From: Psammoneis japonica
Lineage: Eukaryota
DNA: 64,000 nucleotides
Assembly: GCA_008632985.1 (NCBI GenBank)
Contig: QPGO01000011.1
Location: 1 to 64,000, forward strand
Direction of reading: 5' to 3'
Part shown: one piece after another, positions 1 through 41,376 of the stretch
Numbering within the stretch: the first letter of the stretch is position 1
Layout of the letters: every line of letters begins with the position of its first letter
Notes under the pieces: generated by a model
The model's database searches: none
What the model saw: the letters and a program-made list of their open reading frames with translations, nothing else
What the model was told of the DNA's origin: nothing
Program-made: the position numbers and the translations under genes

Positions 1-3000
1 GTTAATGAATCGAAAAATCTGAGAAGAATTGACTTCTTCGTTGCTTTTTCGGTCGAAAGAGCATGACAACAACATCGGCGCACGAGTGTTTTGATGGTTT
101 TTTCGACTCCAGAGCGGCTTTCAAAGCACAGGAAGACTCTCACAAGTGTTGTGAACGAGTGCTGTCGAATGAGGTTGAAGCATTTGTCGCAATGTCTTGA
201 TGGTGTCGCTTCTTGCGTCGAAGCCGCCATTGTCGTTCACAACTTTGAAGTCGGGTGAAAATCGCTTTGTGTTCACATGCATTCTTTGATGATTGAATGA
301 ACATGACATTGTAATTTTAAATCAGTGAATGAATGACAACAGGCGTTTTCACAAGAATCAGCAACAGCTGTTCTCAAGAATCGAACTCGTTCTAAGAAAA
401 CAGGACAGCAGAACTTGTGAATCGTCCGTTGAGCACGCACGTCGAGCTCGAATTTTGCATTCAATGGAAATCAGATTCTTAAGAATTGGCACCCGGATTC
501 TTGAGAATCGGTTTTCACAACTTTTGTCGTGACAGATCTCTCCATGCTGTCCTGCCAGTCTGTCCAACACAAGGGAGTGTGCTCCCCATCTTGTGGGTGT
601 CTGTCATCCTCCCCTGATGAGCAATGCAATGCTCAACAAGAAAAGAAGAGATGATCCGAATAAAAAGAGAGGACTGGAACAGCAGAACAAAGAAGAGCAC
701 CAAAAGAAATGGCCAAGACTTGGTCCGCAAACATGACAACAATCAACGATGACATCCCATCAAGGAACGGGCATGTCGGGAACAAAACATCCATCCCGCG
801 CTCAGTGCATCAGTCTTCGACAAAAAACATCAAAGGCAGTTCCCAACAAATCTTTTGGATGAATTGAGTTGTGCACCAGAGAAGAATTTTGTCAATCCAC
901 AAACAATCGACTGCAACGGGACATTCTGGCAAGTCATCCTGTCACCAAAAATTGTCGGAAGAGATGGGCCAAAGATTGGAAATCCACCATGGCGAGTGAC
1001 ACATTGAAAATGAAGCAATGGCATCCCACCTGGCAAACCAATGCTTCTGCCACACTTTGTGCTGCCCTTGAAAAACACATTGGAGAAACAAAATGCATCA
1101 CAAAGTGCTCAACATCAGAAGAACAGCGACGTGTCGGAGGTGAGCATCGCACAGCATTCAAAAAGTGATCGTCAAGTGAGGCATCTTGGTGGAAGATTGA
1201 GTTCTCAATGGCCTGATGTGTTCCTCTGTGCTGCAGGAATCCCTCCCCTGATCAAAAAATGCAGGATCATCATCGGCAATGGTGGATGGGCCCGGAGCAC
1301 AGTGAAAAGCACAAACAGACGTGACAACGGCCCTGACAACAGAGGAAAGAGATGAAACAGCGGGAGGCAACGAGACTCGGTGGCCCTCTTTCAGGGTCAC
1401 CCCACTTCCATTGGTCTTGATCGGATGAGAGAAGGAATGGCAGCATCGCATGTCCGAAGTTGATGATGGCCAAACCAAAAATCCGAACTGAACAAACTTG
1501 ACAACCAACAAAGCACTGGCAGCGTCCATGAGCAATGGGTGGCAAGCAACTCGGGTGTGACCTTGACAACAGAGGACAGTCCACAACTGGGGTGAATGTG
1601 GCCATCTTTGTGTGGAACAATGGAGTGGCCAGAAACAAAAAACTGCGGGGTCTTGAGCAGGCAGGAGCAGACTTGGCAGGAAGCACCACCGATTCGGAAG
1701 GAATTGCAAGGGATCCCGCATCAATGTCTGTAGATTGCTCACCCGTGGATTCCACAACAGACACAGCAGACTTGATGGTCAAGGAATTGGCACCCGCAGG
1801 ATCCATCCAAGCATCCACAGTGAGTGCATCTTCAACACAAGACACAACAGCAGTGTTGCAGCTGCTGGCAGCAGAGGCGGGATCTGGGCACAACTTGGAC
1901 TCAGCACATGCATGAGAACTCGAAACACTCTTCAATCCATTGGCCACAGCTTGCCCACACTCGTTTGGACCAGGTGAATGAGTTGCCAAGGCCTTGGCAA
2001 AGTCTTCAGGAGCAGGACCTGTGGCAGCAACCGGCGGGGATGCAGAACTTGAGGTTTGAGATGACTTTCCATGTGGAGCATCGGACACATCGTCCCAACA
2101 TGCAAAAGATGGAAAATCCGGATGGAAGAAGAGAAGCACAGTCTCAGCACAGACTGTCATGGCATCGTGACCATCTGAAATTGCCTTGATCATGGCTTTC
2201 TGAAGATTGGCAAGGTTTGGACGAATCAGAGAAGCTTCAGGAGCAGCTGCAAAGTGGGGAGCTTTGTCCACAATTGGACCAATCCGTGCAGATCCTCAGT
2301 CAGCACAGCCTTGGGGATGATGAGGTCATGAACAATCTTGTGATGGAGAGCAGCAACAGCATCGCTCTTGAGGCCTTGAGGAGCAAATCCGTCCAGAAGT
2401 TCTTCGGGAGCAGGCATCTCATTGGAACAAAGGATGTTCAGGTGATGATGGGCATCTGGCAAGAGATGCTGGGGGTTGAATGCAACCAGTGTCAACTTGA
2501 TCTTGGTCAAATCAATGGCGTTTTGATTTTTGTTCACCATGGTTGCGTGGGAAAAAAATCAAATTCCTGCACAGAGCTCTGGCATGTGTTCTACGGTGGT
2601 CGTTTGATCACAAATCGAGAGGTGAAAAAACAGCTGTGACAATGATGATGATTTCAACGAAGAAAAAGTCACCAAATCACACAGCTGGCATTGCAGTGGA
2701 GGAGCACAGAGGAAGAGGAACAGCGCACTGCTGCTCACAACCTTGCAGACTAGCGGCATCGGGACAATCCAATGGACATCTGGGACAGATGACAATCGTG
2801 TGCTAGATGAGAAAGAAAGTGAGCAAAGGAGAGATCATCGGATCTCTCCATGCTGTCCATGCCAGTCTGTCTGACACAAGGGAGTGCACTCCTCATCTCG
2901 GATGTCTGTCGCTGACAAGTGGAGCCACTCATCTGCATCTTCAAAAGTCATCTGTTGAGAAGTTGCGCCAGCACCGTGCATCACAAATGAACACGCTCTT

Positions 3001-4340
3001 AAGATCTTGGCAAAGATTGAGGAAAACCACTGCTGCCATCAGACCTTGCCAACATTTTGTCACTGACAAGTGGAGCCACTCATCTGCATCTTCAAAAGTC
3101 ATCTGTTGAGAAGTTGCGCCAGCGCCGTGCATCACGAATGAACACGCTCTTAAGATCTTGGCAAAGATTGAGGAAAACCACTGCTGCCATCAGACCTTGC
3201 CAACATTTGACCACAATCTGATGATGTGTTTTTTTGTTGGGGTCACCTCTCAACAGACTTGAAGCAGTGACCAAGATTGGCAAGATCAAGAATGATGGTG
3301 TGAGTGCATCAAAGAAGCAACCAAGAGATGGGCGTTGTGCTGCTGCTTTTGCTGCGGGATCAAGCCACACCTGGCAAATGGTTTGGCTGGGCTGCGCACA
3401 TTGCCGTTAAAATGTTGCATGGCCAAGCAAGGCAAAGATGACAAAGAGATGTTGTTTGGCGATGGAGGAAAAAATGCTGCACAGCTGTTTTGCCAGGTCT
3501 GCACATTCAATGAGTGGGGCTCCAGACGCCGCAAAGAAATGGATCGTCCATGAGCTGCTGAACAAAGGTGCAGTCGGCTGTAAAATTTTTGGCAAATGGC
3601 GCTCTTTTCATGGCATCCCATCCTGCACATCTTCAGAATCTAGGGCTTCAACCGTCCTTTCTGAAGTGGCGCAAATGCCCCAACTGCCCTTCAGCATTGG
3701 CGCAAAAACTCCAGCCATTCTTCTGCACCAAAGCTTCAGCCATCCTGTCTGAGGCAGCACAAAGGCTCCAACTGTTCTTTTGCATCAGCGCAAAGGCTCC
3801 AGTGCAATCTGCGACAAGCGGCAGCAGTGCAAAGGTGCCGCAGCACGCCGCCCGTGCATCTGCAAAAACAAACAAGCCACAAGAGCAAGTTGGCGGGCCA
3901 ACTGTGCATCACCCATGCATCATGCATCAACAAAACTCCTGTGGCTTGTGCAAAACACAGGTCATTCTCCTGAGTCATCTGTGTTGTGATGTCAAGAAAC
4001 ATGTGCTGTGGTGTGGTTGCAGGAAAGTGCTGGCGCCGCTGGTGCATCATGACAGTCAAAGTGCTGCTGGCAGCGCGCAATTCTTTAAATGAGCTGGTGG
4101 GGTGACTGCCGCCTCAGCATGGCCCTGCTCACCCACAAGCGCACCACTGCAAAAGAGCAGGCTCTTGGCGCTGACACTGCACATGGCACTGTTGCTGGCA
4201 TGGTGCCATGGTGGCGCAAGTGCAGCAGTGGGCTTTCACATCAAAGGACAGGGAGTGAGCAGTCTTCCCTCCAACACCAAAATGGCAGACAACACAGTCA
4301 TCTTGGCACGGGGAAAAGAACAATTTTTCACCCAGCTCAA
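1..4340. mobile_element. Degenerate, TpA-depleted repeat/transposon relic of unidentified family (may extend beyond window start)
   Basis: No credible protein ORF; six-frame ORFs almost lack Tyr and are Cys/His/Gln-rich. About 16 TA dinucleotides in 4.3 kb by manual scan. Contains internal duplications. Same composition as the piggyBac-like relic at 35.6-38.4 kb. Confidence 0.6.
2907..3208 (+). repeat. 151-bp tandem duplication (2 copies)
   Basis: ctgacaagtggagccactc...ccttgccaacattt starts at 2912 and again at 3063; copies differ at only three CG/CA sites. Confidence 0.95.
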
Positions 4341-4351
4341 AGCAAAATATT

Positions 4352-4509
4352 TGAGGATGGCCGGACTTGAACCGACGACCTGAATGTAGTCACGCGCGAC
4401 ATTGACGTGTTTAGATGAAACTTGAACGCAGGATTGTGGTTGACAAGGTGCTCGAATGACGTACCTTCGGGACTGGAATCCGAAACTCTACCAACTGAGC
4501 TACATCCTC
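4352..4509 (-). tRNA. trnW-CCA: tRNA-Trp(CCA) with an 85-nt GT-AG insert (4464-4380) in the variable loop
   Basis: Minus strand reads GAGGATG TA GCTC AGTTGGTA GAGT T TCGGA TTCCAGT CCCGA AG [insert] GTC GTCGG TTCAAGT CCGGC CATCCTC A. Perfect 7-bp acceptor stem, D-arm, T-arm and A/B boxes. Anticodon at 4476-4474. A TTTT terminator follows at 4347-4344. Confidence 0.9.
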
Positions 4510-4587
4510 ACAACGTTTATCGGTGCTTTTTTTACAATACAAAAGCTAGAAAATGTAAGCGCAGAGCCCGAGTGCGGTGAACCGTGA

Positions 4588-5489
4588 ATGGAACACGCAT
4601 GCATTATTCATGCTGCAACGCAATGGTTACCGAAAGCGCCCTTTCAAGTTGGAAAGTATAGTATGTCAACATCAGGGACTGGCAAGGTCAAGGACCTGTA
4701 TAAAGTATTGAACGTTTCAAGGTATGATAAATAGCAACAGAAAGGACCAAGAAAGTAGTACAATTCGTTCCGTTTCGCACTCAATCGCCCGCCCATTTTT
4801 TCGTTCCTCAACCACTACACTGCCGCACACACAGGACGGCCAGCACCCATGAAATCAAACAAGCTTATCGGAAGCTAGCTTTGGCTCTACATCCTGATAG
4901 ACATGATGGCTGTAGTAACAAGGCCGATGCATTTAAGGCTGCATCGGAGGCATACGATACGTTGTCGGATCATGCAAAACGAACAGCTTACGACAGTGTC
5001 ATGGGCGCTCCAAGAAGAAAGGTCCCGCCCAATTACGGAAAAGTCTATGCACCTCGTCCACCACCAGGATTTAAAATTTACGACACTCAAAAGCATTATG
5101 ATTACCATTATGGCGATGGAATGATGAAGGAAGAAGTGGAGCGTGCCAGGAAACGTGCTCAGGATGCTTCTGGTCGCGATTCGTCATATACTTACCAAAG
5201 CCCACTAGGAAAGGGTTTTACCTTTGGTTCCAACGGAGAAGCAAATTCAAATCCATACTCCAAAGCACCACAGGGTCCACCCCGTATGCGTCAGGATATT
5301 GAATACGAAGAATCACACTTTTACGACATGGATGGTATGGATCGACATCAAACCGCGAAACGGATTATCCGACGAAGAGAAGTCATAAAGGAACGAATGC
5401 AGGAGCGAAGACGAAATCGGCAAAGCGTAGCAAAGTCAGCTGGTGATGTCAATGGACGACAGGAAGCAGGAGGATGTACAGTCATGTGA
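4588..5489 (+). CDS. DnaJ (J-domain) protein with C-terminal CaaX motif; 2 exons (intron 4722-4834); alternative start 4663
   Basis: Spliced reading [32 protein letters not shown]...[13 protein letters not shown] is a J domain with HPD; protein ends in CTVM. Confidence 0.88.
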
Positions 5490-5779: not shown

Positions 5780-7823
5780 TTACTTTTTGGCAGGTTTTCG
5801 GTTGTGTGTCATGTGCGCCTGAACCAAGGTATTGGCGGCAAGCGCAGCCAACAAGCTCAATTCACCACACAAGGTGGCAGCCGCCACGACTTGTGCCAAC
5901 TTTTTGGAATTGTCGCCCGGCGTTGCTCCGCCTCCCTTGCATCCAATGGTTTCCAGACAAGCCGATTGAGCCGCAAGCGATGTGCCTCCACCGACCGTGC
6001 CGACTTCAATCGAAGGCATGGTACACGAGATCCACAAGTCGCCCATGTCGGTTTCTTCCAGAAGAGTAATGCAATTGGACGACTCGACGTTTTGAGCTGG
6101 ATCTTGACCCGTCGCCAAGAATACTGCCGTGACAATATTGGAAGCGTGAGCGTTGAATCCACCAACAGTACCCGCCATGGCGGATCCAACGAGATTCTTG
6201 TTGATGTTGGTCTCCACCATGGCCTTGACGGTTGTCTTGAGAGTGCTTCGTACAACATCCTTGGGAATGGTAGCCTCGACAACGACAGACTTTCCTCTTC
6301 CTTCAATCCAATTGGTAGCTGCGGCCTTCTTGTCGGTACACATGTTTCCCGAAAGCGCAACAAGAGTCAACGTCGGAAACTCCTTACGCAATAGCTCAAT
6401 GACGGCAAGACTTCCCTTGGAGACCATATTCATACCCATGGCATCACCAGCAAAGCATACCAGTCTCAAGTATACATTCTTGCCTGCAACGGTAGGATTG
6501 CACGACTTGAGTTTCCCAAAGCTCGTCGTACCCTCAAACGCTGTTTGAGACGATTGAAATTTTCTGGCTCTTCACACCACAGCTTGAGCATGGCGGCTTC
6601 TTGGGCAGATTCCATTCGAACACATGGAGCACGAGTAATCCCGTCCCTCAAAATGACAGCCGTGGCTCCGCCGCCTTGGGTGACAGCCTTGGCACCGCGG
6701 TTCGTGGATGCCACCAAGCAACCTTCCGTGGTGGCCATTGGAACGTATACCGATTCTTGATTGAGCGTCAATGGTCCCACCATGCCGACAGGCAGAGGAA
6801 TGTATCCCACGACAATTTCACAATTGGCACCGTGAACCTTGCTATAATCCAGTGATGGTTCTTGAGGAATCTTGTGAATCGCACCTCCTTTTCCCAAATC
6901 ATCGAGTTTTGAGTCGATGGACAGGCGTCGGACAATGACAGCACGGTGTGGGTCGAGTCTTTTCTCCAATTCGTGATCCTTGATTTTCTTTTGCGCTACG
7001 AGTTGTTCAATAGATTCGTTATCCAGTTCGCGGATATCTTTCACTGGAAGCGGGGAAGCTCTGAGGGACGCAGGATCAGAACATACTGGGGCCGACGGTG
7101 CCGGAGGATGCACTTTCTTCTGCTTACAGACAGAGACTGATGCAGTATCCTTGGTGGTGGTGGATCTATAGAAGAAGAAAGATGAGTTGAGTAAAAGTTA
7201 GAAGAATGAGTACTACATTTCTCAGAACAACACGGTTATTTGATGCGGGACCCAAAGCAAAAAAATGGCGGCAATCCAAGACTCCGTAGAATTCACGTAG
7301 AACCTGGTACAAACAAGCAAACTCACCGGTGCGAAGCCCCCTGTTCCGACGATGACGCCTCGTCCATCAATTCATCGGCATCGACAAAGGAAATACCAAA
7401 GAATCCAAAGAAATAGCACAAGCATACAGACCATCCGACAATAAACAGAGGCATGGACGTTGAGTTGTTGATGTACGTCGAAGCATAATTGAATCCAAAG
7501 CCTACAACAGACGCTACAAAAACCACGACGGCTGCGTAGTTCGTCCATTTCAAAATATGCCATCGCGGTTGAGGTCCATCCAATGAACTACTACGAGATC
7601 GGGTACTGACGTTGCTATGACTGCGCGTTACCACGGGACTTGCTGTATCAACCATGTTGCTGCCACTGCTGTTCAGCAACAACATTGAAACGCAGATTGT
7701 AAACAGAACGATAATTCCATAAAGCTGCGTCGACGACAAGTCATCCAATCGTGACAGCGCCGAGTCCAGTTTCATACCGATCGTTGTTGATGGCGGTGGT
7801 GCCATTGTGCTGTACTCATTCAT
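5780..7823 (-). CDS. HMGR: HMG-CoA reductase (class I) with N-terminal membrane anchor; intron 7326-7166; apparent single-base frameshift near 6545
   Basis: Motifs [52 protein letters not shown] and H..HNR; hydrophobic segments in exon 1. Confidence 0.95.
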
Positions 7824-18093: not shown

Positions 18094-21000
18094 CTATCGC
18101 GCTAGCACGAGACTCGAAAAAGTAGCCAATAGAACTGCCAGCAATGAAAACGATGTCCATGACTGAGAAGAGGAGACATCAATAGGAGGCGGATTCGTTC
18201 CTGGCGAATCGGTAGGGCGTGCTCCAGGTGCACTAGTCGCGGTCGGCAATCCTCCGGGGGAGTCGGTGGGGCTTGCGCCGGGTGCATTAGTGGCCGTCGG
18301 AGATCCGCCCGGCGAGACGTTGGGATTCGAGGTGGCGGTACTCTCTCCGGAAGACACAGGGTCGGGAATTTCTTCGTTTGGTACACTATCAAACAAGTCA
18401 AACGCCGTAAAGACCGTGTCAAAGTAACGACGATCTGGACAAATATCGTCAAAGTCTTCTGCTTCCTTGACTCCCATCCACTCAGAAATGCCTGTCCAAA
18501 TCTGACTCCATGATGTGGTAGGGATTAAACGCCCTCTACCAATGTTAATGTTGCTTGTCTCAGATAGGTCGGTGGGGTACGTGCCCAAGATTCTGCCACC
18601 CTTTACGGCGCCTCCCAATAAAAAGTAGTTCCCGCCCCAACCATGATCCGTTCCGTCTCGACTGTTCATTGTAAGAGTCCTGCCAAACTCGGACGTTTGA
18701 ACTACAACAGTATCTTCCCAGAGACCCATTGCCTTTAATTCGTTGACGAGACTGGTAATGCCGGCATTGACTTCTTTGAAGCGATCCGCCAGCTCTACCT
18801 TTAGGTCGGCATGCGCATCAAAGGAGCTCGATACTTCCACATAAAACACGTCTGCGTTGGAGCCTCTCGCTTCGCGTGTCTGCATCATCCTTGATACAAT
18901 CTCAAACGAACGTTCCAAATCCGTCTCCCCGAACGCAGTATTTAAATTCGTGCCGGACAAGGTCGAATCAAGCAATTCGTTCTTGTACAACGCCTGAATT
19001 AATGATGAAGACCACGTCTGAGCCATGAATCCACTATCGTGGGTCGTGGCATTGTTGAGATCATGTATAGCTTCCAACATGGCGGCGCGACTCATACTTG
19101 ACGGGGCTTGAGGTATAAATCGGGGGACTCCATTCTTGCTCAAGACAAACGGAGCTGTGTATTGTCCACCCGGAGCGCCAGCCAACATGCTTGACGAAGC
19201 GTCCAGAGAAACCGATTCCGTAGACCTTCCACTTCTTTCCAGAGCGTCCGTCAGACGACCAAGTACACCGACACCAGCAGCGTGGTGGAAGGAGTTCACA
19301 GCTCTAACTTCAAATTGCTGCGTATTGTGTGCGAATAGCTGTGTTGGCGTGTTCCTAGCGTAGTTTGATTTCGTGGACGGCTTGCCAAGTACACCGGTGT
19401 TGGCAAAGAAAAGTAAAGAGTTTTCCTTGTACAGATCTTGTACGATTGGGAGTTCCTCATGGACACCAAAGGTGTCACAGTTCGCCTGTCCGCTACCATC
19501 AATAGAAAGCAGATTCTCGGGTAGCAGGTGTGCGGGGTTTCGAATCTCTGCATAATGCGTGTAAACGTCCACTTCCCCGCTGCTGGCGGAGCATTCATTG
19601 GGAACGAGCATATTAAAAGAGTCACACCCACCCTTAAACATAAGGACGATTATCGCCTTGTAGTCAGCGTCAGGTGCTACGGAGTCCGACACCGGAGGCA
19701 AACTTTCGCCACTGAAAGACAAAGTATTTGTGGTGTGAAACTCTGGCGTGGATGTCAATAATTGTTGAGATATGCGTAATGCCGCGCCTTCTCCTTGTTT
19801 CGACATGACCACATCATACACTGACGCGATTCGTGACCTACTTGCAGCATTTAGTCTCCCAGATGTAAGTAAAGCTGCCAGTTCATCGACAACTTCTCGT
19901 GAAGTTTTGCCCGAGGGTTTGAAACTCAACAAACCCGCTGCTTTGCTAAACAGGCCATCATCTCGACAATTCCCAAATCCAACCGGTGGGTTGGTATAGA
20001 AACCAACTCCGCTTAGCCGGCGAACTGCCCCATCCGAGAAATAGCAGTTGGAGAGTCCGTACTTGACTAATGATTGCATCACGTTCAGAATCCCGATGGT
20101 ATGGGGCATGTCAAGAACTTGAGCCTCGGGAGCAACAAGGGACGCTCGCGACACCGGTCCTTCGGGGACAAACTCAGGCAAAAAGAATGAGAAAACTGAT
20201 TTGTGCTCGTGCGCCATTTGCCCAATGAACTGATCCAAGTCATTAAAGATTGCAAGTGGGTTTTCCCCTCTTTTGCCATTGTCAATCATCTTAAATTCCA
20301 TCCCACGCATCAATCCGACGACTCTTAGTAACGGCTCTCGGATGGAACCAGAGGAAGGATCAGCGTCAAGGATTACGGATCGCGCTTCGCGGTCCAGAAC
20401 TATCGATGCCAAGGTCGAAGCAAGATCACCGTACTTGCTTGTCCCAAAAGACATTCCACCGGACTGGTACTGACCACTACGAAACGCCTCGGAGCAAGAT
20501 TTGACGTATCGAGGGCTTGCATTTGAAATGCCAAACCGTTGGATGAGCCGAACGCAGAGAAACGGTGGGGTGTTGTCATGTGTGAAGAAATGTTGCAATG
20601 TAGCCTCTGTCTCATACATTGCGTCACGGACCGTGGCTTCTAGTGTGAGCAAGCTCAAAAAGTGAACTGGATTCCTGAACGAGAATCCGGTTCGCTGTCC
20701 GCCTTCATCGAGAAGAAAGACAGTAGATTTCACATTCTTCAGAAATAATGTACGCCCGGTCCTGTCCACCACCTCAAAAATCGTGTTACTGTCCAATGAT
20801 TCCCCCATTCTATGGACTGTGAAGCCGTTGGCGGAGGTAGCTGTATAAACCCCGGCATCAAAGGAGCTGGGATCTGGAGCACCAATATGCAGAGAAAGAA
20901 GAATGACCTTAGCATTTGACGGCAGACTCTTGAACACGGCAGTTTCGTCAACGGATGTTTTACAGAAGCAGTTCACCCCTTCAATAACCTCACACCCACC

Positions 21001-24000
21001 GCAATTGTCCATGGCTTCCTTCGGATACAACGAATTAGTCCAAGAAACTCCAAAGAAATTTTGACTTTCACCACGTACATGAAGTTCCATGAAACCACTT
21101 TCGTTCGAGGTCTGCATAAGTTTCAGTTCACCTTCAGGGTTTACTATGACATGGATCGCGCAGGGTGCGAATCCCCAACGATAGAGACGGTCCTTCCTCC
21201 TCTCGCTTGCTCCAACATCTAAAGAACGAAGCTCGCAAGCGGTACTGCTTGCAGAAGCGCACCTTGAGATTTGAGTATCGAGACGTACGCGCTCTCCTTG
21301 ATAATGCGAAATAGAGGCAGCTTTCCTTGAATCTGCTGCTTTGCAGCAGACCGATGAGGCAAGAGGAAGCAAAGGATTCCCGCATATAAGTGACGGGTTT
21401 TTTGTGAATGTTGATAGGAGCATTGCATCGGGAAAAAAGGGATGTTCGACACATGGTGAACGAACGTATTCGTAGAACACCCCAGACGTGACTTCAACGA
21501 CGCGAACCGTGTCCACAAGGCACTCAGTACCGAAACAATCGAGATTTCTGTCGAGCACAATTTCGTTCCTAAACTCGCATCCTCCGCCCCTGTCGCTGCA
21601 TAGCACGGCAAATAATGGTGATTTGCTAAGCGTGAACCGTTCTGTGTAATACGGAGGATTGTTCTGAAGTTCGGGCAGTGGAGATCTTCCCAGCAGTCTA
21701 TACGTGGCTCCCTTCTTAAGAAAATGCATCTTTGGTAGGTCAACGCACAATGGATATCCGTCGCCGACATATCCTCCGTACAAGTTAGTTTTTGGAAAAG
21801 GATCGCGCCATTCTGGAACGATCTTCATTGGATCCAGCCTATTTCCATTGTACAAATCCTCATAGTTTCCCCGTTTGGCTTGTTGCGTAAATCCCGTCCA
21901 GGCTCGAGCGAACGAAAGTATATCTGTGTTTGTATAAACTGATTTGGTTTCATTTCTATCATCGAGCTTGAGTGTGCCATCGTCGTTCAGAAGTACCAGG
22001 CCCGTAGTGAAGAGTTGCATTATCTCTCGCGCAAAGTTTTCGTCAGCAAATTCAAAACGAGAGAATCTCTTGAAAGTGTACGCGGACGATTTCGAATTCA
22101 AGAACGAAAGATTCTCGGCCATCAATGGCGAGTAGCTGCTTTCTCGCAGTATATCGTAAAAATTGCCAAAAGCGTTCCGAACCAGCAGATCGTAGAACTG
22201 AAGAAAAACCTCGGTGAAACGATGTTCCGCTCGAATCGACGGCGTGGCGATGACAAGGATTTGGCTGAGGGCCCAGGCCATGCGCTGCCGTAGCTGATCC
22301 TCCCCGTCCAATGACACCATCGTCCAAACGATCTCGCGTTGCCGTGACAGCCTCAAGGAAAAGGAAGTGCCTCTCATTGGATTATCAAATGTGACTTGAA
22401 AGTTATCACCGCTGCGTTCATCGTTGGCAACTTCACCAGCGCTTCCGCAAATCAGAGCTACAGTGCCCGTATTGCCCGAGTTGGAGCTGTAGTATTCAGC
22501 AACCGCTTCATTTTGAAGCATTTCTGGCAAATCCTGAATACTCAAAATGTCACCAACACGCCCAACAAACTCAAAGTTTCCATAGTTGGAATCCCAACGA
22601 CTCATACCATGACTTAACGTACCATCAACAGGGTGTGTAGAAGGATAAGTTAAGGTAGACGATCCGGCATCAAGCCATTTCGTAATGGGGTTGGGACGTC
22701 CTTCGATTGCGGCCTCCCTGTTTCCTGGGTGAGAGTTGAGTCGCGTCCTACAAGTGCAACGGAACATGAATACTGAGCACAATTCCAAAAGAGAAGGTCT
22801 ACAAAGATAGACATCCAGCCTACCAGTACGTCACATCCCACACGGAGAGATGCTCTGGGTGGACATGTGTCCAACAATCACGTCCCTGCAAAAAGTACAC
22901 ACGAACTACACGGTGAGATGTCATGGAAATGGAGGGAGGGAAGACAATATTGAAGGAAGCTCACAATTTGGATTTCAATGCTGACATCCTTGTCGAAGTC
23001 ATCGCATTGAATATGAGGAACTCGGGGAAATGTTAAGTCTCGAAGAAACGGGTTCACATCCACAGAAGTCGCAAATAGTCGTTGAAGCGCCGCGAGAGTT
23101 TGTGCTCCGAGCTGCGTTGGGCTATCGCACACTTTTCTAGGTTGCCGTTCCCATCGACTACGTACCCCCGGCGTACAAGGGTGAGGAACGGCATAATCAA
23201 ATTCTTCTTGCTTCACTTGCAGTCCTTGAATTGCATAAACGTATCGGTTCGTCAGGTTTTGCAATATGAGTAGATTCTCATCATCCAACTCAATGGCCGT
23301 ATCTGGAACGACGTTCACACCACATGCATTGGTATGATTGCTAAAGACGCAGGAATCAAAATTTTGAAAGGTACGAGGAACGTTAGAGCATCGAGTCATT
23401 CCATTCGTATCCTCCATTGTAACACCCCCACCATCGGTGAGAGGCGATTCAAGACTATTTTCTTGCAGGACAAGCCTCGGGTCCCACTGAAGAAGTCCCG
23501 CTGTTGAATGAAACATGAATATTGGGGGATCGAAATCCTCCGACTGACTGGGAATTTCGTTGCATATCGCAAGACCTTGCATCCCGTCCGATAATATGAA
23601 CTGGTCGTCCCTTTGGAGTTTACCCCCGTTTTGCCACTGGTCAATCGGCGACAGTGACTCATCGCCTGTAACACTTAACACATATTGCCCCATATGAGCT
23701 TCATGCCCTGCAAAGCTCAGAACTGGATTGCCTTCTCTAATCTGTTCGCATGTTCCATCTGGATTGCCGGGATAGGGTTTTGTTTTCAGGAAGAATTTCC
23801 CCCCTGACCACGTCTGTGGAAATCTGCACACCTGATAAGCATAGTTGGAGTCCCAAAATGGGAACCTTCGACGCATTTCCGCCCTGTTCCATGTCATTGT
23901 GTCTACGATTGTACGAGCGTGCCCATCAACCATTAAAATATAAGGCCCTGCTGGAACTTCGGACCCTCTGTTGTTGTAGGTAAAGGTGGTATTCTGAGCA

Positions 24001-26398: not shown

Positions 26399-28586
26399 TT
26401 ATTTCAGGTTGCGCCAATGCTCCGGAAACAAGTCATCTCGAAACTCGACTGGGTGGCGAAAAGCATTGAATAAATGCTGGTCGCTAGTGTATGGCTTGTT
26501 GAAATATCGAATTGAATGCCTCGGAAAGTTTGTGACGAATCGTGGGAGACCCTTCCGATGCCACTTTGTTTTAGACCGAAACGATGATTGGAGAATTCGG
26601 ACCGTGTACGTGTCGGGATCGCCATCCTGGCCAATCACTGCGCATGGCCAGTAGGCTCCATCAAAGCTATCTTCGTAGTCTCCCGTGTATCTATTGCCGT
26701 CGCTTGTGGAGTATCGTCCAAGTATTTTACGGTCCGGCAGATTCTCCCACGTTTTGCCAGGCTTATACCCGTCCCACCAGTTGTCATTCTCCCTGTCGAA
26801 CGTTGTCGGCCAAAAGAGACACCCCGTCAAGAGATTTGTATGCTCTGCTATCCTGCGCAAGTCATGTGATACCAGCAAATCTAAAGGCTCCTCCTTTTCG
26901 TTGAGCTCCGTTGGTGAAACATACGAGTGGAATACGTCGTTGTCCACTGGAGGCGACCACGTCGCGACATGGTCATCCCAAGCCTCTTCCCAACCACTCC
27001 CATAGTCCATAAAAATCTCTTCACCCTCTTCAATGTCTCGGGTAGCGAATACTTCGATTGACAAGCCCCTCTCCTTTGACTGTTCTAAATCTTCCAGGGA
27101 CATTTCGAGAAATGAGTTCGTTCTGTTGGAGTCCCAACCCGATGCCCATCTGTATTCTGCGTTGGGACCCTTCCCTCCGCAGTCTTGCTTGCGTCGAAAA
27201 CTACAATGGTTGATCAGCATCGCATTCGTGATTGGGCACATGAGCATGGAGCTTTGACTGTGACCAAAGCAATAATTCATGAGAAGCTGGTATGGCTTCA
27301 CATTGGGATCATCCGAATCTACTTTCATTCGAAGAACTTCTTTATTCGTCATGTGCAGCATTGGAGCGGGTACAATGATCTCTCCTTTTGAAACAAATCG
27401 TTTTGCCATTGCACCTTGACCGGCGTGGTCAAGTGTACTTGGCCTCGGCGCGATTGTGTCAACACACATTCCGTTTTCTTGAATCCATTCTACGGTTCTT
27501 GGAGTCGTCCCGATATCCCTCGCGAGACGAATTTTTATTTCTTTCTCATCGTTCATTGGAAGATGTGTCATGATCTTCTTCAAGGACAAGTAGGTCGTAG
27601 GGAGTAAAGACGACGCTTTCTTGTTGTATGCTTCCACTTCCTTGCTTACATTGTATACAATATCATCTGTTAACGCCATGACAGAGCACGGATGAGCTGT
27701 GCCAACAAAGCAATCATGAATTCCACAAGGACCACCCTTACTTACCAAAAAGTGATATTCGCTTGTCTCTTTCTTCGCCCATCAAATTGTGCGCACTTCT
27801 GAATTTTAACAGATCTCTCCAAGTTTTGGTAACAACCGTGGCAGCAACATCGAAGTCGCCGTTACGTGCGATGTATCTTGACCAATCCGGCGAATTCTTG
27901 TCAATTGGTCCACAGTGACCATAATTGAGAAAGAGTTCTTCACCCGCTTGAACGTCTCTCTTCACAGTTATCTCCCTTCCCCTGTGATACGAAAAGGCGC
28001 CGACACCAGGATCGATACTGCGATTCTGAAGCATCCCATCGTTGTATGCGCGATGAGAGGGGTTCTTGATGCTCAAAGACTGCAATATGCAATGATGGTT
28101 TGGTAGCTCGCTAAACGTGATCTTGAAATCGACTGCCCTGCCGCCTTCAAGCTTAAGCTGGTCAGCAACTCCCCTTCCCCACCAGTATTCGCCAAACTCA
28201 TCCAACCAGGCCCATCGTGATTCTTGTACAGCATCTGGCTCATCTGATGTAGGCCTGGAATAGTCAAGTACAGGAATACTCAAACCATCAACTGCTCTTA
28301 CAATTACATCATTCTTCGACAACGTCTTTGTGGTATAGATCCCCATACTTGAAATGCCAACGACCGAAGACTCCGCCATGTAAACAGTGCAGGTGTTGCC
28401 TGTTTCTTGTTCCCCTCTGCTTTTGTTCAGCTTTTTCCCTGTGCCCGTTTTGCTCATTTTATCTTTTGCAAACCACTTGTAGTAAAAGAAGGAAAGCTCA
28501 AGCATCAAAACCAAAACAATCAATGTCATTGCCCACATCTGGCTGCGCCCATTGCTGCTGCTACCGTTCGCTTTTCTGGCCATCAT
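26399..28586 (-). CDS. Secretory double-SET-domain protein, paralog 1 (intron 27745-27667)
   Basis: N-terminal TM segment; SET-like motif pairs PNHHC...[14 protein letters not shown] and LINHC...RDIEEGEEIFMDYG; conserved C-terminus PYTSDQHL..AFRHP. Confidence 0.8.
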
Positions 28587-28848: not shown

Positions 28849-31076
28849 TCACTTTTTCAAGTTCCTCCACAGCTCCGGAAACAAATCGTCTCTGAATTCA
28901 ACCGGATGCCGAAAGGCACGGAGCAAATGCTGATCGCTAGTGTATGGTTTGTTGAAATAACGAATCGAATTTCGTGGAAAATGAGTAACGAAACGTGGTA
29001 GATCTTGTTCATTCCACAAAGTCCATCGACCGAAATGAGATTGCAGAATTTGAACCGTATACGTGTCAGCATCCACATCCCTATCAACAACATTACAAGG
29101 CCAATATGATCCGTCATATTGGTTCACATAGTCTGCATCATACATCTCTCCATCGTTGGTTGAATATCGCCGTAGAATTTCTTTGTCACTCAATTCCAGC
29201 CAAGATCTTTCCCCGTCTGCCAACCACCAGACATCTTCATCTGTGTCGAAGGACGTAGGCCAGAAAATGCAACCGGTGTAGAGATTAGTATGTTCCTCTT
29301 GCTCTCGCAAGTCGTGTGACACCAGCAACTGCAAAGGTCCTTCCTTTTCGTTGAGCTCTGTTGGTGAAATATAAGAACGAAATAATTCGTCATGCATCGG
29401 AGGCGACCATGTTGCAACATGATTGTCCCAAGCTTGTTCCCAACCAAGTCCATAGTCCATAAAGATCTCTTCACCCTCTTCAATGTCTCGGGTAGCGAAT
29501 ACTTCAATGGACAAACCCCTGTCTTTTGATCGTTGAAGCTCCGAGATTGACTTCTTCAGAAACGATTTTGTATTGTTGAAGTCCCAACCCGACGCCCAAC
29601 GGTACTCCGCGTTTGGACCTATCCCTCCACACTCTTTCTTTCGTCGAAAACTACAATGGTTGATCAGCATTGCATTCGTGATTGGGCATAGAAGCAAGGA
29701 GCTTTGGCTGTGACCAAAGCAATAATTCATGAGAAGTTGGTACTGCTTCACATCGGGGTCCTCCGTGTCCACGTTCATCCGCAGAGCTTCTCTATCCGTG
29801 ATATGTAGCATTGGAGCGGGTACAATAATCTCTCCTTTCCGCACGGATCTTTTCGCAGTTGCACCTTGACCGGCGTGATCAAGTTTACTTGGGCGCGGTA
29901 AAATGGTGTCTGCGCACATTCCATTTTCTTCCAGCCACTGCACTGTCCGTGGAGTCGACCCAATCTCTCGCGCTATCCTTTTTGTGACTTCCTTTTTATC
30001 TGCTCCTGTTAAATTTGTCATGATATGTTTCAATGAGTCATAGGTGGATGGCATGAGCGACGCGGCTTTCTCATTATAACTCTCGATCTCCTTGCTCACA
30101 CTGTAGATAATGTCATCTTTAATGAGCGAGAAATAGCAATGGGCGGCGACGGTACGTTAGAAAAGAGATTGCATCTTGATCGAGCAAATAATCAACAGAA
30201 TTCGCCCGTACCAAAAAGTTTAATTTGTTTCTCTCTCTCCTTGCCTTTCAATGCATCCACATTTTTATATTCAGAGAGTTCCCCCCACGTCTTTATCGCT
30301 GCCTTTGTGGCAATGCTATAGTCTTTGTAGCCTTTTACGTATACACCCCAATCTGGTTCATAGTGCTGTTCCTTTTGCCCACAATACCCATAGTTCAAAA
30401 ATAGCTCCTCGGCAGCTTCTACGTCTCTGTGAACATATACTTCTCTTCCCATGTGATACGAAAACGCTCCAATACCTGGATCACTGCTTCGATTCAATAG
30501 TCCATCGTTGTATGATTTTCGGGAGGGATGTTTTAGAAACATGTTACTTAAAATGCAATGATGATTCGGAAATTCCCCAAAGGTAATCCTGAAATCAATT
30601 GCCTTTTCCCCTTCCATCTTCATCTGAGCCGCTATATTTTTCTCCCACCAAAATTCTTGGAAAAGCTTGATATATGCGGAGCGAGCTTTCTGAACAGATT
30701 TCGGCTCATTCTTGATTGGTGTACGAGCGTCAATGACAGGAATACTCAGGCCATCAGCAGATTCAACAATGACATCTCCTTTACGCAGGTCTCTTCCGGT
30801 ATAGATGGCCATGGTTTGAATTCCATGTACCGAAGACGGGGCCAAATACACGGCACAGCTACTTGCATCTTCGCTTTTGCCTACCCCTTTGTCGTGATGT
30901 CGCAAACTCTCGCGTAATGCAACTTTCCCCGAAACAACAACGCTGCCTGGAACGCCACCTTCCTGTCTGTACCACGAGTACGAAAACAGTGCTAGTTGCA
31001 CCCACAAGACAAGTAGGACCAAGAACTTTATACGATTGTTGGTGAGACTGAGTTGGATGTTGTTGCCCTGATCCAT
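28849..31076 (-). CDS. Secretory double-SET-domain protein, paralog 2 (intron 30211-30117)
   Basis: Same architecture and intron position as paralog 1; the C-terminal halves are highly similar at the DNA level. Confidence 0.8.
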
Positions 31077-38988: not shown

Positions 38989-41376
38989 TCATCGCTTCAG
39001 GTTCTTCCAGTTGTTTGGGAAAATGTCATTTGGAATGCCAACATGGTGCCGGAAGGCTCCATCTAAATGCATGTCACTTGTGTATGGTTTATTGAAAAAC
39101 CTAATGGACGACCTAGGATACTCGGTCACAAATCGAGGGAGACCGCTGATGTACCACGCAGCTTGGTCGTGATGATCAGAACCTAGAATGCGTACAATGT
39201 ATGTCGAACTACGACGCCTGTGTTTGCGAATCACAGAACAGGGCCAATAAGCACCATTGAACTTGTCTCGGTAGTCTGCATCGTATGTATTTCCAGCTTG
39301 AGAACTGTATCGATCAAGCAAAGTATGATCACTGAAGTTAGTCCAATTCGGTTCCGTGCGATTCCATCTTTCATGCTTGTCAAAGTCTGTTTCCGAAAAG
39401 ATGCAACCCGTGAAGAGATTTGTGTGCGTTTGCGTCTTTCTCATATCACCACTCATCAATGATTCAGGTATTTCATATTGTTCATTAAGTTTCGTTGGTG
39501 AAACGTAGGACGAGGAGTGATTTGACGGTGGTTTCCATTGCTCAACATGCTTCGCCCATGCCTGTTCCCAATCCTTTCCGTAGTCAATAAAAATTTCATC
39601 GCTAGGCTGAATGTCTCGAGTCGCCACGATTTCCATAGACAAGCCACGCTCCCTCTGCTCAGCGATCTCATCTATTGTCATTTGAAGCCACTTGTCCGTT
39701 TTTGGATCCCACCCGGTTGCCCACCGAAGTATTGCGTTTGGACCGTCTGCCCCACACTCGCTCTTTTCGTTGCTACAATGATTGATGAGCATTACATTTG
39801 TTATCGGACAGAGAAGAAGGCTGCTTTCATTGTGGCCAAAGCAGTAATTCATGAGAAGTTGGTAAGAAGTTGGGCCGGTATGGTTGGTGTGGCTCAACCG
39901 CATCACGTCTTTATCCACAACTTGCAACAACGGGGCTGGTGATATAACTTCTCCCTTGGCTAGAAAGCGTTGTGAAATTGCACCTTGACCTGCATGTGGG
40001 AGCGAGCTTGGACCGGCAATAATATTATCAACACACAGACCGTTTTCTTTTATCCATTCTGTGCTCCTCGGAGTGCTGTCGAGCTCGCGAGCAATCCGTT
40101 TTGCAATGTCTTTGTCTGAAGAAGATTCATCAAAAGGCGACATGACATGACGAAGCTCCTCATATGTTTTAGGAAATACGGATGCTGACTTAGTGTTAGA
40201 TTCATTCAACATGGCCCGAGATTTCGATACCATTCGATCTACAAAACAAAGGGTTAGCGACGACACGTCCTGCGATGACACCAATACCGTAAACTCTTTG
40301 AAAGAGAATTCATCAGACTTACCAAGACTTTCTTTCGTCTTTTCACCATGACGAAGCTGCTGACTAGAAGACAAAGTCAAATTCTTCCACATCTCTCTTG
40401 CGACGATTGCAGCAGCCTTGTAGTCGTTTTTAGTCAAGACGAAATCCTCCCAGATGGGTGGGTCATGCATCTCCCGATCATCCTTACAGGGTGTCCCATA
40501 GTTGAGTAACAGTTCTTCTCCCGCCTCAACATCTCTTTTTACAACAATTTCTCGGCCAATGTGATAGGAAAATTCTCCTGTTCCTGGATCACCAGCGCTG
40601 CGGTTGACAAACATGTCGTTGTATGGTCGGACCGTCGGATTTTTGATGTCGATTGATCGAAGCAAACAGTGGTGATTTGGCAGTTGACTAAACGTCATCT
40701 TTAAATCCACGACAGTGTGACCCTCCCACATTAACTGATCAGAAACACCACGGCCCCACCAATATTCGTTAAAGAGGTTATGCCATTGTTTTCGCGCTTG
40801 TCGCAATTTGTCGCTATCGTCATCAAATTCAATGTAGTAGTCGATTACGGGGACGCTTAATCCATCCGAAACGTTCACAATGACGGATCCCTTGGTCAAA
40901 TTCTTAACCGTGTAGATTCCCATACTCTTTACATCTCGTTGCGACGAGGGAGCCATATACACTGTACATTGGTTCGTGCTATAATCGACGTTGCTGGTTG
41001 ATATCGACCGGTTTTCCTTGCTGAACGCGTCTTCACTGCGTGATGCGGTCTGGTTGAGGTTGTTCGTGCTCAATTCGGCATCACTGTTTGATGCTGACCT
41101 GTTGCTCAAGATGAACGAGACAACACTGGATGTTGTCGACCGGTTGTTAGTGCTGAAATCGTTTCTTGCGGCTGGGGTCGGTGCTACTCCAGCGTGGTCA
41201 CGAGATGCATTGTGTTCACTGGCCCAACGCGACACGAAGAAGACCCCCACAAGAGACCATGCTAATAAAATGAAAAAGAACACTGCATAGCGATTTGGGG
41301 GGACTTTCCACATTGCTCGGGTTTTGGTGGCTGAACAATGCGGATGTATGATTCCTCTCTGAGCCATTGACGCCAT
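38989..41376 (-). CDS. Secretory double-SET-domain protein, paralog 3 (in-frame intron 40322-40239)
   Basis: N-terminal TM segment, N-x-S/T-rich stem, PNHHC...GEELLLNYG and LINHC...DEIFIDYG; intron at the same phase-1 site as paralogs 1 and 2. Confidence 0.82.
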   Translation of the reverse strand: MASMAQRGIIHPHCSATKTRAMWKVPPNRYAVFFFILLAWSLVGVFFVSRWASEHNASRDHAGVAPTPAARNDFSTNNRSTTSSVVSFILSNRSASNSDAELSTNNLNQTASRSEDAFSKENRSISTSNVDYSTNQCTVYMAPSSQRDVKSMGIYTVKNLTKGSVIVNVSDGLSVPVIDYYIEFDDDSDKLRQARKQWHNLFNEYWWGRGVSDQLMWEGHTVVDLKMTFSQLPNHHCLLRSIDIKNPTVRPYNDMFVNRSAGDPGTGEFSYHIGREIVVKRDVEAGEELLLNYGTPCKDDREMHDPPIWEDFVLTKNDYKAAAIVAREMWKNLTLSSSQQLRHGEKTKESLGKSDEFSFKEFTVLVSSQDVSSLTLCFVDRMVSKSRAMLNESNTKSASVFPKTYEELRHVMSPFDESSSDKDIAKRIARELDSTPRSTEWIKENGLCVDNIIAGPSSLPHAGQGAISQRFLAKGEVISPAPLLQVVDKDVMRLSHTNHTGPTSYQLLMNYCFGHNESSLLLCPITNVMLINHCSNEKSECGADGPNAILRWATGWDPKTDKWLQMTIDEIAEQRERGLSMEIVATRDIQPSDEIFIDYGKDWEQAWAKHVEQWKPPSNHSSSYVSPTKLNEQYEIPESLMSGDMRKTQTHTNLFTGCIFSETDFDKHERWNRTEPNWTNFSDHTLLDRYSSQAGNTYDADYRDKFNGAYWPCSVIRKHRRRSSTYIVRILGSDHHDQAAWYISGLPRFVTEYPRSSIRFFNKPYTSDMHLDGAFRHHVGIPNDIFPNNWKNLKR

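Follow-up and report, generated by a model that had tools for sequence, protein, structure and literature searches.

A tRNA-Trp(CCA) gene of the diatom Psammoneis japonica interrupted in its variable loop: a possible spliceosomal-type intron

The introns of tRNA genes and those of messenger RNA (mRNA) genes are the textbook case of two separate splicing systems. A 64,000-nt stretch of nuclear DNA from the diatom Psammoneis japonica (positions 1 to 64,000 of contig QPGO01000011.1, hereafter the window) carries on its minus strand a tRNA-Trp(CCA) gene whose two intact halves are separated by an 85-nt insert. This insert, located in the variable loop between tRNA positions 45 and 46, begins with GT and ends with AG. 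An earlier note on this DNA, which left the strand unstated, had proposed that it is a spliceosomal intron. A spliceosomal-type intron is indeed the most likely single explanation, a disabled copy of the gene being almost as likely. The interpretation of the earlier note is partly supported. The observation is confirmed and statistically odd, and its interpretation, which has a mechanistic precedent as well as a strong mundane rival, is plausible. The reading favoured here, held with reserve, is that of a real nuclear diatom tRNA-Trp(CCA) gene that has acquired a spliceosomal-type GT-AG intron at 45/46.

The tRNA-Trp gene and its insertion

The gene comprises the following features, whose positions are those of the window:

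4352..4509, minus strand: interrupted tRNA-Trp(CCA) gene, 158 nt (Rfam RF00005; ARAGORN after in-silico removal of the insert)
4465..4509, minus strand: 5' exon, 45 nt, tRNA positions 1-45 (cmscan alignment, direct reading)
4474..4476, minus strand: anticodon CCA (cmscan, ARAGORN, direct reading)
4459..4467, minus strand: candidate 5' splice site AAG/GTACGT (7/9 matches to the U1-complementary consensus)
4380..4464, minus strand: 85-nt insert, candidate spliceosomal-type intron, GTACGT...ATTCAG (cmscan insertion, direct reading)
4377..4384, minus strand: candidate 3' splice site TTCAG/GTC (direct reading)
4352..4379, minus strand: 3' exon, 28 nt, tRNA positions 46-73 (cmscan, ARAGORN, alignment with relatives)
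4344..4347, minus strand: TTTT run, expected RNA polymerase III (Pol III) terminator, 5 nt past the discriminator base (direct reading)

In a scan of the whole window, the Rfam family RF00005 matches 4509..4352 with 44.6 bits (gathering score 29; E value 3e-6) over the full model (positions 1-71 of 71), and the alignment given by cmscan contains a single long insertion, between model positions 44 and 45. The covariance score is about 20 bits lower than those of the intact tRNAs (61-70 bits) of two loci described below (L010 and L011). The 5' exon includes the 5' strand of the acceptor stem, a D arm with the A-box-like sequence TAGCTCAGTTGG, the complete anticodon arm and A44-G45. The 3' exon includes G46-U47-C48, a T arm with the B-box-like sequence GGTTCAAGTCC, the 3' strand of the acceptor stem and the discriminator base A73 (at 4352). 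Once the exons are joined by script, ARAGORN reports a tRNA-Trp(cca) with a regular cloverleaf, all four stems being paired, and with the standard variable loop that the earlier note had expected from removal of the insert.

The anticodon CCA, a G1-C72 pair and the discriminator base A73 are identity features of tRNA-Trp, and the ARAGORN drawing of the joined molecule displays all three. The gene is a nuclear one, encoding a tRNA-Trp of the eukaryotic cytosolic type. It shows none of the usual marks of a pseudogene, such as lost pairing, lost conserved bases or lost promoter or terminator elements, and the insertion is its sole lesion. The TTTT at 4347-4344 is expected to act as terminator; a T run is found within about 25 nt of the tRNA end in all nine metagenome relatives.

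These relatives belong to a set of 11 related tRNA-Trp genes, nine from metagenome contigs and two (L010 and L011) from giant-virus-like contigs. The pattern used for the metagenome scan corresponds to the anticodon arm and fits interrupted and uninterrupted forms alike. In all 11 relatives, G37 is directly followed by U38-C39-C40-C41-G42-A43-A44-G45-G46-U47, a run identical to that of the tRNA of the window, which fixes the insertion at 45/46. The length and position of the insert given in the earlier note are thus borne out by cmscan, by direct reading and by this alignment. All the relatives match this tRNA exactly over the anticodon arm and the beginning of the variable loop, and they also share A73. 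Among the 43 columns that are invariant in the 11 relatives, 42 are kept by the tRNA of the window, the exception being U25, which still pairs with G10; at position 26, this tRNA has U and the relatives have A or G. The flanks of the nine metagenome loci have nothing in common with the window and display no synteny with it.

Some side observations concern this family. The 12 tRNA-Trp genes are identical from C28 to A44, and in all of them A31 is opposed to C39 (4479 and 4471 in the window), a mismatch at the lower end of the anticodon stem. As it is common to all relatives, this mismatch is a family trait, not damage. The relatives L010 and L011 belong to tight tRNA arrays (1-552 and 274-496, respectively) on contigs of 59 kb and 134 kb from a viral collection, and these arrays include a eukaryote-type tRNA-Trp whose anticodon arm is the same as that of the diatom gene. 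In L001 (minus strand), the relative closest by BLAST to the 5' exon of the window, the DNA letters CCA come right after the discriminator base; they may be an encoded CCA end or result from chance.

The insert is flanked by a 4-nt direct repeat, AGGT being present at both junctions, so that five cut registers lead to one identical product; any intron located in an AG/GT site would give the same repeat. The insertion site is the sole AG/GT of this tRNA. TTTT is absent from the insert, as stated in the earlier note. No second copy of the insert occurs within the 64-kb window. Among the 657,387 contigs of a DNA run of the same organism, the contig of its own locus alone covers the insert at a likeness of at least 80%, in a search whose filter may drop records. 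Terminal inverted repeats are lacking; a subterminal imperfect pairing of 7 bp is present. The insert was also considered as an active member of a family of introners or miniature inverted-repeat transposable elements, a candidate rejected in view of the lack of further copies and of terminal inverted repeats. One 8-nt repeat, GTTCAAGT, is common to the insert and the T loop, with an estimated chance probability of about 1 in 12.

Three public DNA runs, all from one sample, were found for the organism. A contig assembled from public reads (2248 nt, depth about 51) covers 4150-4710 unbroken, insert included. It differs from the window by substitutions at 4204, 4208, 4420 and 4434 and by one G inserted after 4184. 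Two of these substitutions are located within the insert and none in the exons, counts that are too small for a test. The insert is thus carried by two DNA versions (alleles, strains or assemblies); it is real DNA and is not brand new. No contig over 4150-4710 skips the insert, in a search that an intronless paralogue could escape, as it would match merely 45 + 28 nt.

The earlier note had also suggested that standard tRNA finders could miss such genes. This holds for ARAGORN, which with default settings reports 0 tRNAs in the whole window, but not for Infernal with Rfam, which detects the gene. Were this tRNA to depend on the spliceosome, such a miss would be a warning that the tRNA genes of protists are undercounted by tRNA finders. 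The Rfam scan of the window, with E values up to 1, revealed no other split tRNA.

The ends of the insert and the introns of mRNA genes

The insert was compared with eight candidate mRNA introns of the window, which were kept from automatic lists of joined open reading frames (ORFs) that are mostly noisy. Two of them are backed by homology, one in a DnaJ gene (4722-4834, continuity of the J domain) and one in the HMG-CoA reductase gene (7326-7166, tblastn with diatom proteins). The six others rest on in-frame joining of long ORFs, with one or two possible GT-AG segments each. The values are as follows:

Length (nt): candidate mRNA introns 81-172; tRNA insert 85
G+C fraction: candidate mRNA introns 0.39-0.49; tRNA insert 0.47
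Donors: candidate mRNA introns GTATGA, GTGAGT, GTAAGT, GTACGG, GTAAGT, GTATGA, GTAATT and GTGGGC; tRNA insert GTACGT
Matches to the donor consensus (of 9): candidate mRNA introns 4-7; tRNA insert 7
Pyrimidine content before the acceptor: candidate mRNA introns 0.60-0.80; tRNA insert 0.55
yTnAy word 10-50 nt before the acceptor: six of the eight candidate mRNA introns; tRNA insert TTCAT at -37 only
TTTT inside: five of the eight candidate mRNA introns; tRNA insert none

The resemblance that the earlier note had seen between the ends of the insert and those of mRNA introns of the window is confirmed: its termini are GT and AG, as in U2-type GT-AG introns, and its donor equals the best of the comparison set. 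Its length is likewise that of a typical intron of the window. The 3' half fares less well. The CAG acceptor described in the earlier note is present but follows a segment that is poorer in pyrimidines than in any of the eight comparison introns. The branch-like words that it mentioned turn out to be poor, since CTAAAC does not correspond to CTNAC and TTCAT, 37 nt before the acceptor, is the sole yTnAy word. Globally, none of the donors of the window surpasses that of the insert, the size and composition of which fit as well; its 3' half is mediocre.

As the AGGT repeat supplies GT and AG for free, the evidence is confined to the insertion site and to donor positions +3 to +6, among which +3, +5 and +6 fit. 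Its weight was estimated by simulation, random 85-nt pieces of the window being inserted at random tRNA positions with a duplication of 0, 2 or 4 nt (200,000 trials each). In some register, GT..AG ends were obtained in 0.6%, 2.4% and 5.1% of the trials, respectively. The requirement for R at +3 and G at +5 in addition lowers these values to 0.06-0.46%, and GT..AG ends with at least 7 of 9 U1 matches were obtained in 0.007%, 0.08% and 0.15%. In view of these low frequencies, the ends of the insert are poorly explained by blind insertion, although the selection of the locus among many scanned windows, which cannot be quantified, has to be reckoned with.

The intron reading is thus based on intact exons, a protosplice site, a donor complementary to U1, an intron-like size, the lack of the bulge-helix-bulge (BHB) motif described for the non-canonical tRNA introns considered below, the presence of the insert in two DNA versions, and a terminator in place.

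Competing explanations

The rival that survives best, to which nearly the same credence is given as to the favoured reading, is that the gene is a disabled copy of tRNA-Trp. According to this explanation, 85 nt of unrelated DNA would have been inserted at AGGT through repair or transposition, and an intronless gene located elsewhere would serve the cell. The GT-AG ends and the decent donor would be accidental, and the copy would not yet have decayed.

Most of the points that weigh against a spliceosomal intron are also those that a disabled copy accommodates. The AGGT repeat at the junctions gives GT and AG ends automatically, and a 4-bp target-site duplication or a repair driven by microhomology would also yield this repeat. 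The branch motif and the pyrimidine tract are weak, the range upstream of the acceptor containing TTCAT and no CTNAC. All 11 related tRNA-Trp genes that were fetched are intronless, none of them being known as a close relative. The deviations at positions 25 and 26, where the 11 relatives all have C25 and R26 and the gene of the window U25 and U26, could be first signs of decay. Other eukaryotes of the metagenome set carry two or three tRNA-Trp genes (L004/L005; L002/L008/L009), and where a gene exists in several copies, an insertion in one of them can become fixed by drift, spliced or not. The 3' flank of the gene bears a repeat and a 151-bp tandem repeat lies at 2907-3208 (both described below). 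Two further points concern the spliceosomal intron itself. In the fold constrained to the cloverleaf, its donor pairs with the 3' portion of the insert, and no tRNA gene with a spliceosomal intron came to light in the accessible literature that was searched. A 2026 review of algal tRNA genes mentions no spliceosomal tRNA intron, 'spliceosom' being absent from its text, and passages of two papers on diatom tRNAs (PMC8975779, PMC4247016) are silent on tRNA-Trp or on spliceosomal-type tRNA introns.

Against a disabled copy, a random insertion at AG/GT with a donor this good arises in at most 0.15% of the simulations. All stems, the conserved loop bases, the box-like elements and the terminator are intact. 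The insert is single-copy in the searches of the window and of the contigs, though the contig search did detect a diverged 79-nt repeat of its neighbourhood, and it shows neither terminal inverted repeats nor excess structure. The two DNA versions differ at two positions in the insert versus none in the exons, numbers that are too small for significance. Finally, it is plausible, in favour of the intron reading, that an isoacceptor is encoded by one gene, which in that case would need to be functional.

The metagenome collections were also searched for interrupted forms. A gapped pattern allowing an insert of 63-123 nt gave 0 matches in genome_contigs. Its two matches in viral_contigs were rejected as introns, as they correspond to tRNA arrays in which the T loop of the next tRNA met the pattern. 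A pattern requiring a purine after AAGGT gave 0 matches in genome_contigs and 0 in viral_contigs.

A second and unlikely alternative is an intron removed by protein enzymes, the exons then being joined by a ligase. It could be either an 87-nt intron at the canonical position 37/38, measured by the ruler mechanism of the tRNA splicing endonuclease (TSEN), or a 45/46 intron cut by an endonuclease of relaxed specificity as in red algae. The first form is what ARAGORN reports when introns are allowed (option -i), namely a tRNA-Trp with an 87-nt intron at 37/38 (...TCCAG/TCCCGAAGG...GACTAC/ATTCAG...), in which one further feature comes into play:

4380..4385, minus strand: ATTCAG, 3' end of the insert, serving as substitute 3' strand of the anticodon stem in this rival parse (ARAGORN -i)

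This parse drops the eight bases from U38 to G45, in contradiction with the run that is kept in all 11 relatives. Its anticodon stem consists of U.G, a C/A mismatch, G-C, G.U and A-U, that is one mismatch and two G.U pairs, and its variable loop is reduced to 3 nt. In constrained folds, it reaches -28.7 kcal/mol versus -36.5 kcal/mol for the native cloverleaf, i.e. 7.8 kcal/mol worse.

The second form is suggested by the existence of non-canonical tRNA introns in some algae, namely Cyanidioschyzon, Chondrus and the Guillardia nucleomorph (PMC13578239, PMC3728597). They are described as BHB-like in PMC13578239. A fold check of the junctions of the insert, as proposed in the earlier note, found no such motif, strict or relaxed. 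The strict motif required a 4-bp helix with flanking helices and, behind each strand of that helix, a 3-nt bulge that is cut between its second and third bases. None of the five registers displays it: the best one has three of the four pairs, and the flanking helices there have 0-2 of 5 pairs. In the relaxed scan, the helix could have 3-5 bp and the bulges 2-4 nt, with the cuts placed 1-3 nt behind each strand. The sole fully paired helix has 3 bp (GAA/UUC), and no configuration has both flanking helices of at least 2 bp. Judged by these models, the insert differs in kind from the BHB-like non-canonical tRNA introns known in eukaryotes (red algae and a cryptophyte nucleomorph).

It is very improbable that the insert is retained, be it as a giant extra arm in the variable region of a functioning tRNA or tRNA-like molecule, or in a tRNA-like RNA without function in translation. 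The variable region is the location of the extra arm of class II tRNAs, and when the cloverleaf is enforced the base of the insert does close, GUA-GUCA pairing with UGAC-UAC. The insert alone is, however, no more stable than its shuffles (z 0.12; 109 of 200 shuffles at least as stable), and the z value of the whole precursor is -0.86. The region matches no Rfam family besides tRNA, and no box C/D words (UGAUGA, CUGA) were found by eye in the insert, which does not resemble an independent structured RNA. To our knowledge, a variable arm of 85 nt also lies far beyond that of any tRNA.

An assembly or sequencing artefact can hardly be the cause: the assembly of the window may hold indel errors, as suggested by the frame shift in HMG-CoA reductase near 6514-6559, but the independent contig at a depth of about 51 spans the gene with the whole insert.

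Possible mechanism, known systems and surroundings

If the insert is a spliceosomal-type intron, transcription by Pol III would be driven by the A and B boxes, which are intact, and would end at the TTTT (4347-4344). Since the insert has no TTTT, the earlier note's suggestion that Pol III could read through it would hold, and the polymerase would not be stopped inside the intron; the insert increases the distance between the box-like elements by about 85 nt. Another possibility is that the tRNA gene is read through by Pol II, in divergent transcription initiated at the promoter of the neighbouring DnaJ gene. U1 would pair with AAG/GUACGU, the 85 nt would leave as a lariat via the spliceosome and G45 would be joined to G46, the tRNA being then finished by RNase P, RNase Z and the CCA-adding enzyme. 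The intron would most likely originate from reverse splicing into an abundant RNA, the product of which would have been reverse-transcribed and recombined into the genome, a route proposed for the U6 introns of fungi, or else from another process that targets protosplice sites. That tRNA-Trp is made here only after spliceosomal removal of an mRNA-type intron from the variable loop of a Pol III transcript, which would be the first spliceosomal intron in a tRNA gene, is a slightly less likely claim than either the intron reading or the disabled copy.

The implications depend on the explanation. If the insert is merely the lesion of a disabled copy, it is an ordinary curiosity. If the spliceosomal reading is true, the translation capacity of the cell would be tied to the activity of its spliceosome. 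The hosts of spliceosomal introns other than mRNAs, i.e. U6, U1, U2, U5 and ribosomal DNA (rDNA), would be extended to the most abundant class of small RNAs. With this gene, a known type of intron would gain a new class of hosts and tRNA synthesis a new route, and the gain of introns via reverse splicing into abundant RNAs would have a natural test case.

The closest precedent comes from fungi. According to passages of PMC5855946, spliceosomal introns are known in the genes of U6, which are transcribed by Pol III, in those of U1, U2 and U5 and in rDNA; the mRNA-type introns of small nuclear RNA (snRNA) genes reviewed there include those of U6 in Schizosaccharomyces pombe and other fungi and of U1, U2 and U5 in Rhodotorula, the work on them being that of Tani and Ohshima 1989, 1991 and Takahashi 1993, 1996 (cited via PMC5855946). 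The same passages present the abundance of the RNA as a possible determinant of such introns outside mRNAs, suggest reverse splicing into abundant RNAs as their origin and call for experimental validation of other U6 introns. Like these fungal introns, the diatom insert is a GT-AG insertion in the gene of a small, abundant and structured non-coding RNA, which in the case of U6 is transcribed by Pol III. In both cases, the insertions are species-specific and lack a BHB motif, and reverse splicing is proposed as origin. However, the host is here a tRNA, which stands outside the spliceosome and has its own intron machinery. Furthermore, splicing is established for the fission-yeast U6 intron, whereas the diatom insert is known from DNA alone.

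Spliceosomal introns have also been described in the nuclear rDNA of ascomycetes (Bhattacharya et al. 2000, as cited in PMC5855946). These introns are similarly of the spliceosomal type in a stable-RNA gene that is not transcribed by Pol II, indicating, as far as that account goes, that such introns are not confined to mRNAs. They differ from the diatom insert by their host, an rRNA transcribed by Pol I, by their occurrence in lichen-forming fungi and by their many insertion sites.

Among tRNA genes, ectopic nuclear introns are reported in passages of PMC3728597 and PMC13578239 for Cyanidioschyzon merolae, Chondrus crispus and the nucleomorph of Guillardia theta. As in the present case, they interrupt tRNA genes of eukaryotic algae away from 37/38 and are missed by standard finders. 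Unlike the diatom insert, which has GT-AG ends, a donor complementary to U1 and neither a BHB nor a relaxed BHB, they are described as BHB-like and are taken in PMC13578239 as substrates of the tRNA splicing endonuclease.

The last system that deserves comparison is that of the introners, transposons that create spliceosomal introns upon insertion (passages of PMC9860276 and PMC12130899). According to PMC12130899, they occur in the diatom Thalassiosira oceanica and in Parmales, and their target-site duplications are 3-9 bp long (PMC9860276). They share with the diatom insert a short length, a short flanking direct repeat that supplies splice-site bases and an occurrence in marine algae including a diatom; they are, however, multi-copy and often bear terminal inverted repeats, and the insert displays neither of these properties. 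The word tRNA is absent from the passages concerned of both accounts.

The window has a G+C content of about 48%, is gene-dense and nuclear, and carries genes encoding DnaJ, HMG-CoA reductase, an Nsp1-like nucleoporin and SET-domain proteins. Its assignment to a diatom is supported by the fragment of HMG-CoA reductase, whose identity with proteins ascribed to Nitzschia, Fistulifera, Pseudo-nitzschia and Odontella amounts to 83-89%. The divergent neighbour of the tRNA gene is the following:

4663..5489, plus strand: DnaJ gene (Pfam DnaJ from profile position 27; both exons read)

Its ATG, at 4663, is located 153 nt from the 5' end of the tRNA gene, and the DnaJ gene itself contains a GT-AG intron of 113 nt (4722-4834). 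There is no sign of a coding gene around the tRNA: on both strands of 1-4400, the ORFs are of implausible low complexity, and that of 1270-2271 has no Pfam match.

The 79 nt just downstream of the T run of the tRNA gene (4269-4347) have a diverged copy on a 641-nt contig from the same DNA run, with 7 substitutions and 11 gap letters, which is not beside a tRNA. The 3' flank of the gene is therefore repeat-bearing DNA. Further away, 2907-3208 consists of two tandem copies of a 151-bp unit with 98% identity, inside a region (1-4300) without a convincing coding frame on either strand.

Three other observations concern genes of the window. At 6514-6559 (minus strand), the frame of HMG-CoA reductase changes by one base in the absence of an intron, and the tblastn pieces of four diatom homologues overlap there in two frames; either the assembly has an indel error at this place or the frameshift is real. 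A single ORF of 1564 amino acids at 18094-22788 (minus strand) combines DUF1800 and DUF1501 domains, which usually belong to two adjacent bacterial genes; a possible explanation is a gene fusion of bacterial origin in the diatom nucleus. Finally, three SET-domain ORFs at 26399-27748, 28849-30099 and 38989-41376 (minus strand), grouped within 15 kb, possibly form a local gene family.

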